Source: Escherichia coli
GTDB taxonomy: Bacteria; Pseudomonadota; Gammaproteobacteria; Enterobacterales; Enterobacteriaceae
Reading direction: 5' to 3' (one strand)
NCBI RefSeq assembly: GCF_003334335.1
Contig: NZ_QOWQ01000011.1
DNA: 64,000 bases
In this document: positions 1 to 6,212 of the stretch, piece after piece
How the letters are laid out: every line of letters starts with the position of its first letter
Position numbering within the stretch: the first letter of the stretch is position 1
Notes under the pieces: generated by a model
Seen by the model: only the letters and a program-made list of their open reading frames with translations
Databases searched by the model: none
Told to the model about the DNA's origin: nothing
Made by a program: the position numbers and the translations under genes

Positions 1-456
1 AGTACGGATTTGGGGACGAAAAACACATCGTCGTTTGATTACGGAACCAAATCCACGAATAACACCGGGGCGCATACCCATAGTATTAGCGGGACTGCAA
101 ATAGTGCCGGTGCGCACCAACACAAGAGTTCCGGTGCATTTGGTGGCACGAACACGAGCATTTTCCCTAATGGTTATACCGCGATTTCAAATCTAAGCGC
201 GGGGATTATGAGCACAACAAGCGGTAGTGGCCAGACTCGTAATGCAGGGAAGACATCATCAGATGGTGCTCATACCCACTCGCTGTCCGGCACTGCTGCA
301 AGCGCAGGCGCACATGCACATACTGTCGGTATTGGTGCTCATACGCACTCCGTTGCGATTGGCTCACACGGACACACCATCACCGTTAACGCTGCTGGTA
401 ACGCGGAAAACACCGTCAAAAACATCGCATTTAACTATATTGTGAGGCTTGCATAA
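1..456 (+). CDS. stf: Phage side tail fibre protein, C-terminal part (5' end outside window)
   Basis: Open frame from base 1 with no upstream stop. Gly/Ser/Thr-rich with repeated GAHTHS / GAHAH / GSHGH motifs, like the His-x-His motifs of T4 gp37 and lambda Stf distal fibres. Its stop overlaps the start of the next gene. Confidence 0.7.
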
Positions 457-1037
457 TGGCATTCAGAATGAGTGAACAACCACGGACCATAAAAATTTAT
501 AATCTGCTGGCCGGAACTAATGAATTTATTGGTGAAGGTGATGCATATATTCCGCCTCATACAGGTCTGCCAGCAAACAGTACCGATATTGCACCGCCAG
601 ATATTCCGGCTGGCTTCGTGGCTGTTTTCAACAGTGATGAGTCATCGTGGCATCTTGTTGAAGACCATCGGGGTAAAACAGTTTATGACGTGGCATCAGG
701 GGACGCGTTATTTATTTCTGAACTCGGCTCATTACCGGAAAATGTTACCTGGTTATCCCCGGAAGGGGAGTTTCAGAAGTGGAACGGCACAGCCTGGGTG
801 AAGGATACGGAAGCAGAAAAACTGTTCCGGATCCGGGAGGTGGAAGAAACAAAAAACAGCCTGATGCAGGTAGCCAGTGAGCATATAGCGCCGCTTCAGG
901 ATGCTGTGGATCTGGAAATCGCAACGGAGGAAGAAACCTTGTTGCTGGAAGCCTGGAAAAAGTATCGGGTATTGCTGAACCGTGTTGATACGTCAACTGC
1001 ACAGGATATTGAATGGCCAGTAGCACCTATAGGGTAA
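456..1037 (+). CDS. tfa: Phage tail fibre assembly protein
   Basis: 193 aa ORF starting at the ATG that overlaps the fibre gene stop (TAATG). The sequence resembles Tfa-family chaperones of lambdoid and P2-like phages. Confidence 0.75.
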
Positions 1038-1895
1038 ATTCGTAATGATTACCTAAATACGTTATTCTTTTGTTCAAAAAGTGATTTTGCTATAGATAGG
1101 GAGTATGTTCTTGGATTAAGAATAAAAATCGCCATGAAAGAGCTTCATGGCGAGTACATAAACGTACAAAATGTGATGAAAGTAGAGTGGCGTAAGCCAC
1201 TATATTAAGATGTGACAATAGCGAAGAAAAGTAAATAACATTTTATGGACGTTTAATTGTTAATTATAAAAACTAGAGTGCCCGATATTGTTTACCTTGC
1301 TTTAAAATAATGTACTCAAACCAAATTTTTGAGCTAAAAGCTCAAATAATATAAATGCAATAATAATGTTTAATAAGACAATTAGCTTGCTTTGTATTTT
1401 CATTTCGGAATACTGTTAAGTAACTTTGATGACCCTAACAATAGATCGGAATTTTCTTAGAGTCAATGGTCACTGTTTTTGCTTGCAAAGCAAATGTTTT
1501 GGTGGTTATAAGTTGTCTTAATATAGTCACGCATGCAACTTGTTCCATGCGGAGATTAAAGATTGGAATATAACGCTAAGATGGAATTAAATTACATTTG
1601 CAATAATCAATTTATTATTACTCAATAATTACCGATATTATTATTGTAAATTAATCATTAGAGTGCAAAAAGAAATGTAACGGCAAAATAAGAGGACGAT
1701 AGCTGAGAAAAAAGCGTGCTTTCCCAATCTGGGGCAAATCACGTCTGAATGACACCTGAAAACAGGTGGTAGCCTCAAGAAGGCTTGGAATATTCTTCTT
1801 TAATGTTATGTAATTCATTGATTTTTCGTGTACGATTTAAAGACATTTATTCCAAGAAAAATTTTTAACTCTTTGATTTTTCGACTCTGTATCAT

Positions 1896-1957
1896 CGGTC
1901 TCGAAAACCGGAGTAGGGGCAACTCTACCGGGGGTTCAAATCCCCCTCTCTCCGCCA
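1896..1957 (+). tRNA. 3' fragment (about 62 nt) of tRNA-Ser(CGA) (serU-like): anticodon stem, variable arm, T arm and acceptor 3' strand ending CCA. Not a complete tRNA.
   Basis: CGGTCTCGAAAACCGGAGTAGGGGCAACTCTACCGGGGGTTCAAATCCCCCTCTCTCCGCCA matches the 3' two-thirds of E. coli serU as I recall it. The 5' acceptor strand and D arm are missing; upstream sequence is unrelated AT-rich DNA. Confidence 0.7.
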
Positions 1958-2541
1958 CTTTATCAATGACTTATCTCCCGACTTCCCGCCTTGCTTTTCC
2001 TAAACAGAACAATCGTAGAATATTCTTGAAGGGTTAGATCGTCACTGTTTTCTGTTCGATACTGTGACATTCAGCACTTGATTCGCTATGGATCTGACAG
2101 GAAGGTTTTGAGCGAAAATTTGCAGTTATTCAGTCGTTTTCTTATCGGTCACCATTATTCTTTTAGACATTGATCCTACAAAGCTGCCGCAAAGTTGGTG
2201 GTGGGAACTGAAGTTGCGTAGAGAAGGGGTCAATACCCGGAGGCAAACATGGGCTGGCAAAAGTGTAGCGGTATTAGGCGCAGCTATTTAGCCTAGTTAT
2301 GTTTTATGAAAACTTGATATCATATAAGTGTCTTACTTATTGGCTGTAAATAAGTTTTTCCTAAGGAATTGTTTCTTGAGTATCATTTGTAACTGTAACG
2401 GAATTTATAATCCTTTGCTTTATTGTTACGGTATTTTTTATCACACCCTATTTTTTATGTGGTTTTTTATACTGAAGTTTGGCAAAGTGAACTTTATATG
2501 CATATACTTCATCCTGGTTTCAGTTAAGTTGGGTGGATGAT

Positions 2542-3285
2542 ATGGCAACTACATGTTCAGTTATATTGATTTTGGAGTCCTTTGATGTTTATTTCGGAAA
2601 AGAGAGTGTGTTTCTGGAGAGAGGTTCATCTGTACTTGTCGACTCTAGCTCTAGAGATTTTTTCCTGACATATCCTGAAAGAGTGATAGTGGCGGATTTT
2701 GGCGCTGAGTTTATTAGTCGCTATTTGAAAGCTAATAACTTAAGGGATATTTCTGATTGTAGGGAATATCCATCTTATTTAAAAATAAACTTTGCTGACT
2801 TCAGTTTAATTAAAGGATTAATTAGTTGGGCTAATCACTGTGCTGAATACATAGAAATTTTTGATGAGTCTATTGCTTTTACATGTCTCTCTGCATTTTC
2901 TTCTGAAAAACAATTTGGAGTATTTCTGTTTGAATGTTTGAAAAGCACAGGGGCTAAAGTTAAAACGATTATTCATACGGATTTATCTGCACCATGGCGT
3001 CTTAAGGATATATCATCAAGATTATATCTCAGCGAAAGTTTACTAAAGAGGAAATTGAAAGAAGAGGGGGTATCATTCAGTAAGATCATACTTGATGAGA
3101 GGATGCAAATGGCTGAATATTTACTCAGCACTCGTTGTTATCCTATTAGTAAAGTAGCTAAGGTCTGTGGTTATGCCAGTGTCTCATACTTTACTTATGT
3201 ATTTAGACGTTATTTTGGTGTTTCTCCAAGTCAATACTCTCAGAGCAGTTCAGAAAGTAAAATTCTTACTCACCAGGGAATCTGA
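2542..3285 (+). CDS. AraC/XylS-family transcriptional regulator, AppY/EnvY/Rns-like, low GC
   Basis: C-terminal helix-turn-helix region (ISKVAKVCGYASVSYFTYVFRRYFGVSPSQY) and overall similarity to prophage-borne AppY. ATG at 2542 preferred over the GTG at 2533 used by the ORF track. Confidence 0.75.
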   Translation: MATTCSVILILESFDVYFGKESVFLERGSSVLVDSSSRDFFLTYPERVIVADFGAEFISRYLKANNLRDISDCREYPSYLKINFADFSLIKGLISWANHCAEYIEIFDESIAFTCLSAFSSEKQFGVFLFECLKSTGAKVKTIIHTDLSAPWRLKDISSRLYLSESLLKRKLKEEGVSFSKIILDERMQMAEYLLSTRCYPISKVAKVCGYASVSYFTYVFRRYFGVSPSQYSQSSSESKILTHQGI

Positions 3286-3289
3286 TCAT

Positions 3290-3790
3290 TGTTCTTGCCC
3301 CCTTATTTCCAGACAGGGGGTGTATCTTAAGTTAACGTTACCCGCTGACGTCGATATTCTCGCGGAGAGCGATAACCCAACGCACTGTGCGGATGGTTTT
3401 CATTGTAATGTTCGATCGCCACTGCAAGATTATGCAATGCCGTTCTTACATTCGGTTTCGGCATGAACGCGATGTAGTCTTCCTTCATCGTTTTCACGAA
3501 CCTTTCTGCCATTCCATTACTCTGAGGACTGCTGATTGCCGTTGTGCAGGGCTCCAGATTCAACTCTCTGGCGAACTGCCATGTTTCATGCGCTCTATAC
3601 GCTGAACCGTTATCTGTCAGCCACTGGATGGACTGTTCCGGTACTTTATCGCCAAAGCGTTTTTCTATCGCTCCTAACATGACATCCTGCACTGTCGCTT
3701 TATCGTAACCTCCCGTGCTTGCGGCCCAGTCTATGGCTTCACGATCGCAACAGTCCAGGGCGAACGTAACACGCAGTTTTGAATCGCCAC
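3290..3790 (-). mobile_element. IS3-family (IS2-like) insertion sequence remnant: one terminal inverted repeat plus the 3' part of the transposase gene
   Basis: Terminus TTGCCCCCTTATTTCCAGACA at about 3291-3311 resembles the IS2 right inverted repeat. The adjacent minus-strand ORF encodes a DDE transposase C-terminus. The element is cut off near 3780-3790 by a second IS end. Confidence 0.55.
3327..3692 (-). pseudogene. Truncated IS3-family transposase OrfB (C-terminal about 120 aa only)
   Basis: Translation ends ...[20 protein letters not shown], the conserved C-terminal signature of IS3-family DDE transposases. The N-terminal catalytic region is absent. Confidence 0.6.
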
Positions 3791-4080
3791 GGGTTTAACA
3801 GACACCTCAGAGTCATTTAAGATGGCTTAAAGAGAGGTGCCCATGAGCGGTAAGCGTTATCCCGAAGAGTTTAAAACTGAAGCAGTCAAACAGGTTGTTG
3901 ATCGCGGTTATTCTGTTGCCAGCGTTGCAACACGTCTCGATATCACCACCCACAGCCTTTATGCCTGGATAAAGAAGTACGGTCCGGATTACTCCACTTT
4001 TTCATCAAGCCAATCCGCCCACCACTGCATCATTTCTCTGCGCTTATCGAGATACTGAGCGTGGTTGTAAATTCAGCTAA
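3781..4080 (+). mobile_element. Second IS3-family insertion sequence remnant: left end plus truncated orfA
   Basis: TGAATCGCCACGGGTTTAACAGACACC resembles IS3-family left ends (TGA...GTTTAAC.GACAC, as in IS600). It is followed by an OrfA-like helix-turn-helix ORF and ends abruptly before the tI/sib hairpin. Confidence 0.5.
3837..4058 (+). pseudogene. Truncated IS3-family transposase OrfA (helix-turn-helix domain intact, C-terminus degenerate)
   Basis: N-terminus MSGKRYPEEFKTEAVKQVVDRGYSVASVATRLDITTHSLYAWIKKYG is a typical OrfA helix-turn-helix. No leucine zipper, frameshift window or orfB follows. Confidence 0.6.
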
Positions 4081-4088
4081 CCCAGTGT

Positions 4089-4136
4089 GTTGACAAAAAA
4101 TTAGCGCAAGAAGACAAAAAAATCACCTTGCGCTAA
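4089..4136 (-). terminator. Lambda tI/sib-like hairpin adjacent to the att P arm
   Basis: 10-bp inverted repeat TTAGCGCAAG / CTTGCGCTAA with a 16-nt loop, followed on the minus strand by TTTTTTG. It is the reverse complement of the lambda sib/tI sequence as I recall it. Confidence 0.55.
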
Positions 4137-4138
4137 TG

Positions 4139-4300
4139 CTCTGTTACAGGTCACTAATACCATCTAAGTGGTTGATTCATAGTGACTGGATATGTTGTGT
4201 TTTGTAGCATTATGTAGTCTATTTTTTAGACTGAATAAATTATAAGTCGTTGATATTAATTGTTTTTACCGTTTCACATTCAACTTTTTTATACTAACTT
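4139..4300. other. attR: Prophage attR (lambda-type P arm, core CTTTTTTATACTAA at about 4284-4297, bacterial B' arm)
   Basis: TCTGTTACAGGTCACTAATACCATCTAAGT... closely matches the lambda P arm; it diverges toward the core. Core and downstream CTTGAGCGAAACGGGAAGG match the E. coli attB side. Confidence 0.75.
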
Positions 4301-4387
4301 GAGCGAAACGGGAAGGTAAAAAGACAAAAAGTTGTTTTTAATACCTTTAAGTGATACCAGATGGCATTGCGCCATCTGGCAGAGTGA

Positions 4388-4864
4388 TTAACTAAACATC
4401 GCAGTAATCGAGGCGCTTGCCAGAGAGTGGAAATGAACGTTAAACCCGACCATCGCGCCGCTGGCACCTTCATCGACATCAATACGTTCTATATCCAGCG
4501 CGTGAACGGTAAAAATGTAGCGATGAGTTTCGCCTTTCGGCGGTGCTGCGCCATCGTACCCGGTTTTACCAAAGTCGGTACGCGTCTGCAAAACGCCGTC
4601 TGGCATTGCTACCAGACCAGAGCCAAACCCTTGCGGTAATACGCGGGTATCAGCGGGTAAGTTAACAACTACCCAGTGCCACCAGCCGGAGCCGGTTGGC
4701 GCATCCGGGTCGTAGCAGGTGACAACAAAACTTTTCGTTCCCGCAGGAACATCATCCCACGCCAGATGCGGTGAAATATTATCGCCATCGTAACCCATGC
4801 CGTTAAAGACATGACGATGCGGCAATTTATCGCCATCGCGCAGATCGTTACTGATGAGTTTCAT
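4388..4864 (-). CDS. ybhB: PEBP-family protein YbhB
   Basis: 158 aa ORF recognised as K-12 YbhB; position next to bioA. Confidence 0.9.
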   Translation of the reverse strand: MKLISNDLRDGDKLPHRHVFNGMGYDGDNISPHLAWDDVPAGTKSFVVTCYDPDAPTGSGWWHWVVVNLPADTRVLPQGFGSGLVAMPDGVLQTRTDFGKTGYDGAAPPKGETHRYIFTVHALDIERIDVDEGASGAMVGFNVHFHSLASASITAMFS

Positions 4865-4922
4865 GAACCCTCCTTTCTTGTTTGCAGAAAGTGTAGCCAG
4901 AAACCCTCACGCGGACTTCTCG

Positions 4923-6212
4923 TTATTGGCAAAAAAATGTTTCATCCTGTACCGCGCGGTTAACCGCTGCGGTCAGACGCTGCAACTGTTGCGGGAGAAT
5001 AATATAGGGCGGCATCAGGTAAATCAGTTTGCCAAAAGGCCGGATCCAGACACCCTGTTCGACAAAGAATTTTTGCAGCGCCGCCATATTCACCGGATGA
5101 GTGGTTTCGACCACGCCAATGGCCCCCAGTACGCGCACATCGGCAACCATTTCGGCATCACGGGCGGGGGCAAGTTGCTCGCGCAGCTGTACTTCAATAT
5201 CCGCCACCTGTTGCTGCCAGTCGCCAGATTCGAGAATCGCCAGGCTGGCGTTTGCTGCCGCGCAGGCCAGCGGATTGCCCATAAAAGTTGGCCCATGCAT
5301 AAAGCAACCGGCTTCACCGTTACTGATGGTTTCTGCAACCTCGCGCGTGGTGAGTGTGGCGGAAAGGGTCATTGTGCCGCCGGTTAAGGCTTTACCGAGG
5401 CACAAAATGTCCGGCGCGATTTCTGCATGTTCACAGGCAAACAGTTTCCCGGTACGACCAAATCCAGTGGCGATCTCGTCGGCAATCAGCAAGATACCTT
5501 CGCGATCGCATATTTTGCGGATTCGTTTTAACCATTCCGGATGGTACATGCGCATCCCGCCTGCGCCCTGGACAATCGGCTCAATGATCACCGCCGCGAT
5601 TTCATGACGATGCGCCGCCATCAGGCGGGCAAAGCCCACCATATCGCGCTCATCCCATTCGCCATCCATGGGGCTTTGCGGGGCGGGAGCAAACAGGTTT
5701 TCTGGCAGGTAGCCTTTCCACAGACTGTGCATTGAGTTATCCGGATCGCACACCGACATCGCGCCAAAGGTATCGCCATGATAACCATTGCGGAAGGTCA
5801 GAAAACGCTGGCGCGCTTCGCCTTTGGCTTGCCAGTACTGCAACGCCATTTTCATCGCCACTTCCACCGCTACGGAACCGGAGTCCGCGAGAAAAACGCA
5901 CTCCAGCGGTTGCGGCGTCATCGCCACCAGTTTGCGGCACAGCTCAATGGCTGGCGCATGGGTGATACCGCCAAACATCACATGCGACATGGCATCAATT
6001 TGCGACTTCATCGCCGCATTAAGCTGCGGGTGATTGTAGCCGTGGATCGCCGCCCACCAGGACGACATACCGTCAACCAGGCGTCTGCCGTCAGACAAAA
6101 TCAGCTCGCAACCTTCGGCGCTCACCACCGGATAAACCGGCAGAGGGGAGGTCATGGATGTGTATGGGTGCCAGATATGGCGTTGGTCAAAGGCAAGATC
6201 GTCCGTTGTCAT
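4923..6212 (-). CDS. bioA: Adenosylmethionine-8-amino-7-oxononanoate aminotransferase
   Basis: Start set at [14 protein letters not shown] (429 aa); the ORF track extends 37 codons upstream into the bio operator. PLP aminotransferase class III. Confidence 0.93.

Follow-up and report, generated by a model that had tools for sequence, protein, structure and literature searches.

Two truncated IS3-family elements and an integrase stub form a probable recombination scar beside attR in an Escherichia coli prophage carrying a PatE-like regulator gene

Truncated IS copies are commonplace in the accessory (b) region of lambdoid prophages. In E. coli O157:H7, a patE locus (z0321, in OI-8) has been described, and PatE activates acid-resistance genes there (PMC10877973). 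Phage mEp332, which enters the comparisons below, serves as a lambdoid phage that propagates on K-12 (PMC3442831). Two IS3-family elements are also relevant to the locus described here. One is a complete 1337-bp element of E. coli UMNK88 (locus L012, nt 701-2037), which PGAP labels ‘IS3-like element ISEc48 family transposase’. The other is a 1229-bp element, here called IS-B, of which insX of K-12 (next to yagB, in CP4-6) is a fragment. The b region of phage 434 provides the closest phage counterpart: as in our locus, debris lies between the tail-fibre genes and sib-attP, and the same intS stub and the same junction to sib are found. The contents of the two regions differ, since phage 434 carries NleC/NleH-like genes and an IS1414 fragment, whereas our locus has a PatE-like regulator and two IS3-family stubs.

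The locus was analysed within a stretch of 64,000 nucleotides (the window), which belongs to the E. coli chromosome around the lambda attachment site. The presumed scar sits between the PatE-like regulator gene and attR, and its parts and neighbours are the following:

2542-3285, plus strand: PatE/YdeO-like AraC-family regulator gene, the left neighbour of the scar (PGAP CDS WP_000246057.1 in an identical locus)
3290-3779, minus strand: ISEc48-like remnant (IS3 family, IS2 group), with the IRR and the last 150 codons of orfB (3327-3779)
3780-3990, plus strand: left ~210 bp of IS-B (1229-bp IS3-family element), with the IRL TGAATCGCCACGG from 3780, a ribosome-binding site and an ATG at 3843
3985-3990, no strand: junction microhomology CGGATT, common to IS-B orfA (GGTCCGGATTCTTCCACT) and the natural intS 3' flank (AAGGCGGATTACTCCACT)
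3989-4072, minus strand: stub from the 3' end of an intS-type tyrosine integrase gene, with 27 codons (IYNHAQYLDKRREMMQWWADWLDEKVE) and the stop
4092-4138, minus strand: lambda-type sib/tI hairpin, in which the stem 4100-4110 pairs with 4128-4138 and is followed by a T-run on the minus strand
4139-4297, plus strand: attR, consisting of the P arm and the 15-bp core (4283-4297, ACTTTTTTATACTAA), followed by bacterial B' DNA with ybhB next

The window begins within a tail-fibre gene, and its left part (1-1037) is occupied by tail-fibre and tail-fibre-assembly genes. Rightward of attR, ybhB (4388-4864, minus strand), bioA, bioB and bioF follow. The closest NCBIfam models to the regulator are YdeO (E 2.1e-43) and GadX (E 2e-31); its stop codon is at 3283-3285, and the ISEc48 terminal repeat begins 4 bp downstream. 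Window positions 1895-3763 are 99.3% identical to a locus at ~0.31 Mb of O157:H7, which we infer to be OI-8/z0321 (patE) from its position, its family and the published description (PMC10877973). The O157:H7 patE locus (z0321, OI-8/CP-933H) shares with the window a tRNA-Ser-like fragment, the regulator and the first 474 bp of the ISEc48 remnant. It differs in that ISEc48 is cut 16 bp earlier and is followed by other DNA and another tyrosine recombinase, with neither IS-B nor the intS stub.

On the right-hand side, phage 434 is matched over window positions 3986-4297, from the end of its b region through the terminator and P arm to the 15-bp core, and the sib and att sites annotated in HK97 are matched as well. 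Homologues of the sib/tI hairpin are annotated as a terminator in phage 434 and as a ‘sib retroregulation site’ in HK97. The P arm and core are 88-99% identical to those of 434, HK97, ev099 and PhiR70_1, and the match stops at 4297. Because the match to the ‘O core of attP’ of phage 434 ends at 4297, exactly where B' DNA starts, the label attR is right: a P arm and core are joined to gal-bio B' DNA, as in a lambda-type attR. The neighbours named in a preliminary description of this DNA, a regulator on one side and attR on the other, were thereby confirmed.

We found that the left-hand fragment, 3290-3779, aligns without gaps to nt 701-1190 of the UMNK88 locus, with 15 mismatches in 490 positions (96.9% identity). 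The terminal repeat TGTTCTTGCCCCCTTATTTCCAGACAG begins exactly at 3290, in the same register as in the UMNK88 copy. The orfB part (3327-3779, minus strand) is open over 150 codons, with zero frameshifts or stops. Its translation matches positions 143-289 of 301 of the NCBIfam model ‘IS2 transposase TnpB’ (E 3.8e-70), a match made by the C-terminal 147 residues of a partial protein and scoring under the whole-protein cut-off, and positions 232-369 of 369 of the model ‘IS3 family transposase’ (E 1.5e-32). A DDE (rve) transposase OrfB is thus represented by these C-terminal 147 residues of a partial protein. Only one of the two TG-starting inverted repeats is present, the IRR (TGTTCTTGCCCCC...) at 3290. 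The homology ends at 3779, 490 bp into the 1337-bp element, and the IRL, orfA with the programmed -1 frameshift, and the 5' part of orfB are absent. Judged by its sequence, this fragment represents 490 bp (37%) of an ISEc48-like element from its IRR end, and apart from the truncation it is not degraded. It shares with ISEc48 of UMNK88 the terminal repeat and an intact stretch of the C-terminal 150 codons of orfB, but, lacking the IRL, orfA and the N-terminal half of OrfB, it cannot transpose. The fragment had previously been described as a minus-strand transposase C-terminus with an IS2-like terminal repeat. The assignment to the IS2 group holds, but the element is ISEc48-like; since its DNA is only ~70% identical to that of IS2 itself, ‘IS2-like’ is correct for the group and wrong for the element.

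In UMNK88, a 16-bp direct repeat, AACTCCAGTTACTCCA, borders the complete ISEc48 copy on both sides (L012 685-700 and 2038-2053). Elements of the IS2 group are expected to generate a target duplication of ~5 bp, far shorter than this repeat.

The right-hand fragment, 3780-3990, was compared with a complete IS-B copy from the K. pneumoniae plasmid pNDM-185 (NZ_MH011352.1:178947-180175, reverse strand; L015), which is 1229 bp long and has a 3-bp duplication (CTA) on its flanks. Another candidate for the complete reference, L005, was rejected because it contains a ~150-bp IS30 piece, and pNDM-185 was taken instead. Identity to nt 1-211 of the pNDM-185 element (L015 584-794) was observed at 208 of 211 positions. 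The repeat TGAATCGCCACGG at 3780 is the IRL of complete copies, in which it recurs in inverted orientation at the far end as the IRR; in the window, the IRR is absent, together with orfB and the part of orfA beyond codon 49. The orfA frame starting at 3843 encodes 49 native residues (MSGKRYPEEFK...KKYGPD), of which 46 match pNDM-185 OrfA. It stays open into foreign sequence as far as 4058, so that the 71 encoded residues consist of 49 native and 22 foreign ones. The N-terminal HTH of OrfA is recognizable (residues 9-54 correspond to positions 1-47 of an NCBIfam IS3 transposase model, E 3.8e-8). The DDE transposase is missing with orfB, which in a fuller IS-B copy (L004) matches an NCBIfam IS3 transposase model with E 9e-107. 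In comparison with the insX-type element, the window is 98.6% identical over the first 211 bp, a part that takes in the IRL and orfA codons 1-49, but keeps 17% of the element and is ended by a microhomology junction to intS, whereas in K-12, E. coli B and many plasmids the element is interrupted by IS30 instead. The earlier account of this fragment, a plus-strand OrfA-like piece with its own IS-like end near 3781-3790, was right about the end, which is an intact IRL, but the fragment starts at 3780.

No specific name for IS-B was found: PGAP annotation of E. coli genomes and PLSDB plasmids gives ‘IS3 family transposase’, and a full-text literature search with the terminal repeat returned no match. 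In E. coli, copies of IS-B usually have IS30 within them. Either IS30 or an IS30 piece interrupts the element at nt ~315-320 in K-12 insX, E. coli B and several plasmids (L004, L008, L009, L005); uninterrupted copies come mainly from Klebsiella and Citrobacter plasmids. The shared position of the interruption suggests that a single old insertion has spread, or that the site is an IS30 hot spot. An internal deletion of ~87 bp in L004 begins just after TTCCACT, the same point where the window's copy of IS-B ends.

The presence of two IS3-family fragments that abut each other in opposite orientation was therefore borne out, far beyond chance. Neither element is complete, as had been stated, and each retains one terminal repeat. 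IS sequence had been proposed to fill the whole interval 3290-4080. This is true up to ~3990, but IS homology stops there, and the right-hand quarter (3989-4072) is the intS stub.

At the DNA level, the stub is 92-96% identical to annotated intS genes. The complete integrase frame and its catalytic domain are absent; only the last 27 codons and the stop remain. The join between IS-B and intS was placed by comparing three sequences: the window, IS-B (L015) and an IS-free intS locus (L016). The motif CGGATT lies inside a longer imperfect match between GGTCCGGATTCTTCCACT and AAGGCGGATTACTCCACT, and this alignment identifies the join as a microhomology junction, not an IS end. Full-length intS sits at the same junction in strains C7 and 2024CK-00188, both of which diverge from the window at 4072/4073. 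Phage 434 (L010 ~2975-3090) has an intS stub with the same right junction, GTAAAT/TCAGC, into sib; no IS is present there, and part of the natural downstream flank of intS is retained. Since phage 434 has the stub without any IS, the stub is an older relic, left by an exchange of IntS-type with lambda-type integration modules. We found no evidence for the suggestion that part of the phage b region was lost together with the IS sequences; what lies to the right of IS-B is the integrase stub that phage 434 also has.

Comparison with related prophages had been recommended as a check, and it showed that phage 434 has no IS at the corresponding place, and that argW prophages and the phages ev099, mEp332 and PhiR70_1 share the arrangement. 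The argW-integrated prophage of strain C7 contains window positions 1895-4072 at 99.36% identity with identical junctions. The IS stub there ends at the intS stop, and full-length intS, tRNA-Arg and yfdC follow beyond the junction. Strain 2024CK-00188 has a C7-like layout with an extra deletion of window positions 3352-3779. Among phage genomes, the whole stretch from tfa to attP is present in ev099 (47.2 kb) and mEp332 (46.2 kb), and PhiR70_1 (48.8 kb) has the part from window position 895 to attP; identity over these stretches is 98-99%, and 98-100% for the block itself. The block 1895-4072 is 99.5-100% identical between ev099 and the window, while identity over sib-attP (4073-4297) is only 90.7%; this drop makes 4072/4073 a recombination boundary. 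The block has thus been moving between phages with different att alleles, and distinct att-arm alleles circulate among phages that share the cargo. Identical junctions in argW prophages and conservation of the stretch in phage genomes indicate that the block is an inherited cassette.

The 428-bp deletion in 2024CK-00188 (L014 4996-5004, joining window positions 3351/3780) reaches precisely to the terminal TG of the IS-B IRL. It looks like an IS-end-anchored adjacent deletion, and IS-B is a transposase-less stub in that strain too.

About 176 complete E. coli genomes hold window positions 3200-4400 at the ybhB site, and ~184-191 genomes carry the IS/IS/stub junctions in any context. When a chimeric query was used to look for a longer IS-B joined to the ISEc48 stub, none was found, and all 184 of 184 genomes stopped at the same point. 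The junction between the AraC gene and the IRR is constant in five genomic contexts. The other end of the ISEc48 remnant varies, lying at 3779 in lambda-att and argW prophages, at 3763 in O157, at 3540 in H187-189 and at 3351 in 2024CK-00188. A chimeric query of genomes for the AraC gene followed by a longer ISEc48 found none. From the constant AraC-IRR junction, the varied endpoints and the lack of any genome with a longer ISEc48, it follows that the ISEc48 insertion is the oldest event.

Position 1895 is the exact left edge of the block common to the O157 OI-8 locus and the C7 argW prophage. A tRNA-like 3' fragment (...GGTCTCGAAAACCGGAGTAGGGGCAACTCTACCGGGGGTTCAAATCCCCCTCTCTCCGCCA) is found at 1895-1954, and we take it to resemble the 3' two-thirds of tRNA-Ser(CGA). 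ARAGORN detected no tRNA or tmRNA in window positions 1-5000, and with a permissive E-value cut-off the Rfam search yielded only two hits, at 1903-1954; both were below threshold and came from this fragment. The fragment looks like an att-site relic of an earlier integrative element that carried patE. Since lambda-att phages propagating on K-12 and E. coli C carry the PatE/YdeO-like regulator, its gene counts as a transmissible moron and not as part of an island peculiar to O157. In E. coli RM10410, upstream of a stretch identical to window positions 1-4400, partial genes for a terminase large subunit and a tail protein are fused directly to each other (L001 1-1257), and because of this fusion the lambda-att prophage of RM10410 is considered a heavily deleted remnant.

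The stretch between the regulator and sib is, very probably, an inert three-part recombination scar within a mobile ‘patE moron’ block, and not the result of decay in place in this prophage. In the sequence of events that we propose, an ISEc48-like element would have transposed to a point 4 bp past the stop of the PatE-like AraC gene, with its IRR toward the gene; the insertion point can be read directly. The left end of IS-B would then have been placed inside ISEc48 orfB, 490 bp from the IRR, and its intact IRL at 3780 directly abuts the ISEc48 interior. Illegitimate recombination at CGGATT would next have joined codon 49 of IS-B orfA to DNA just past the intS stop, removing the rest of IS-B and the intervening DNA; the junction is visible in the window, and probably arose in a single step. 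This event most probably took place in an argW-integrating (IntS-type) lambdoid phage, where intS is intact up to the junction; it is placed there because in such a phage the integrase had to stay intact. The sharp identity breaks at 4072/4073 suggest that the block subsequently entered lambda-att phages, for which an exchange within the 84-bp intS stub would be the simplest route, and phages such as 434 already have an intS stub left of sib-attP. Integration of such a phage at attB-lambda would finally have put the scar beside attR. Transfer from argW-type to lambda-att phages is the assumed rather than the proven direction; the reverse is possible, since recombination within these 84 bp could work in both directions.

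The preliminary description had instead proposed that one IS inserted into the other in this lambda-att prophage, and that later deletions removed most of both and part of the b region. The anatomy of the junctions does fit insertion followed by deletion, and lambdoid b regions gather IS debris, as the IS1414 fragment in 434 illustrates. Yet the identical junctions adjoin full-length intS in argW prophages, and complete phage genomes contain this block too. Moreover, the right endpoint falls exactly at the end of the integrase frame, which is sensible only with an intact gene, and identity between block-sharing phages drops sharply at 4072/4073. The argW junctions and the identity drop in ev099 already largely refute decay in place, which we regard as improbable. 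Most of both elements is indeed gone (847 of 1337 bp and ~1019 of 1229 bp, respectively), but the identity of the junctions in argW prophages means that the decay did not occur in this prophage. As for the nesting of the two elements, an intact IRL that meets an ISEc48 cut in the middle of orfB fits an insertion of IS-B into ISEc48, or an IS-end-anchored rearrangement. The nested intermediate is absent, however: a chimeric query for the reciprocal junction (IS-B IRR joined to the rest of ISEc48; ...CCGTGGCGATTCA + TTTTTCGCCATCATC) found none in 5,426 complete E. coli genomes, and the claim that one IS inserted into the other therefore rests on a single junction.

Whether the end of IS-B was brought to its place by a simple nested insertion or by an IS-end-anchored adjacent deletion we can only infer. 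In the latter case, IS-B would first have inserted to the right of a complete ISEc48, after which its left end would have attacked ISEc48 orfB intramolecularly, with loss of the left part of ISEc48 and of the DNA between. The 428-bp deletion in 2024CK-00188, which ends exactly at the terminus of the IS-B IRL and so bears the signature of an event of this kind at this same end, speaks for such a course, as does the failure to find the reciprocal junction of a simple insertion in any of the 5,426 genomes. The latter observation is, however, expected under both models if the deletion was fixed before the block spread. In addition, the postulated earlier insertion site has left no direct trace, and a simple insertion with one microhomology deletion requires fewer events. 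An adjacent deletion is thus possible but rather unlikely.

Since each element has one end only and no complete transposase is encoded, both are immobile. The scars are best read as inert debris carried along with a useful regulator gene, and their persistence needs no function. Retention for a function appears very unlikely. It could take the form of the 71-residue OrfA stub, with its HTH domain, serving as a small regulator, of antisense transcription from the IS-B end into intS or sib modulating integrase expression, or of the ISEc48 end supplying the 3' end of the patE transcript. The orfA stub does keep a ribosome-binding site, an ATG and a promoter-like site (3795-3823), but the coiled-coil part of OrfA is missing, and 4 promoter-like sites were found where 5.6 are expected in shuffled sequence. 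Behind patE, no variant retains less than the first 62 bp of the ISEc48 IRR, but variants with very different ISEc48 lengths all persist. A terminator scan between patE and the IS end revealed no convincing terminator. No Rfam family was matched at threshold, and nothing was found in 3290-4080. The block is widespread, but the near-identity of its copies is explained by recent spread; because the block is young and at least 99.4% identical everywhere, conservation is uninformative on selection. We see even less chance that the IS-B stub has been domesticated as a small DNA-binding protein, or that its transcript, by an antisense or interfering action, tunes the expression of integrase in phages with the patE block. 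Its promoter-like site, ribosome-binding site and 71-codon frame all point toward the integrase 3' end and sib. Nothing points to a role of the 71-codon orfA stub or of its transcript, whose putative expression is nevertheless conceivable. We therefore retain the reading of the scars as inert debris.

The scar itself is ordinary and already known in its parts: RefSeq has partial transposase genes and pseudogenes at this locus, and phage records likewise. As exact markers, however, the scars show that one cassette with patE, an acid-resistance regulator gene, has moved very recently, and that it is found in argW-type prophages, in lambda-att phages still forming virions and in the OI-8 element of O157:H7. 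The 84-bp intS stub, which records that integration modules were exchanged long ago, is a plausible homologous handle by which b-region cargo in general, and the patE cassette in particular, could move between IntS/argW and lambda-type phages. The junctions could serve as lineage markers for the spread of patE-like regulators.
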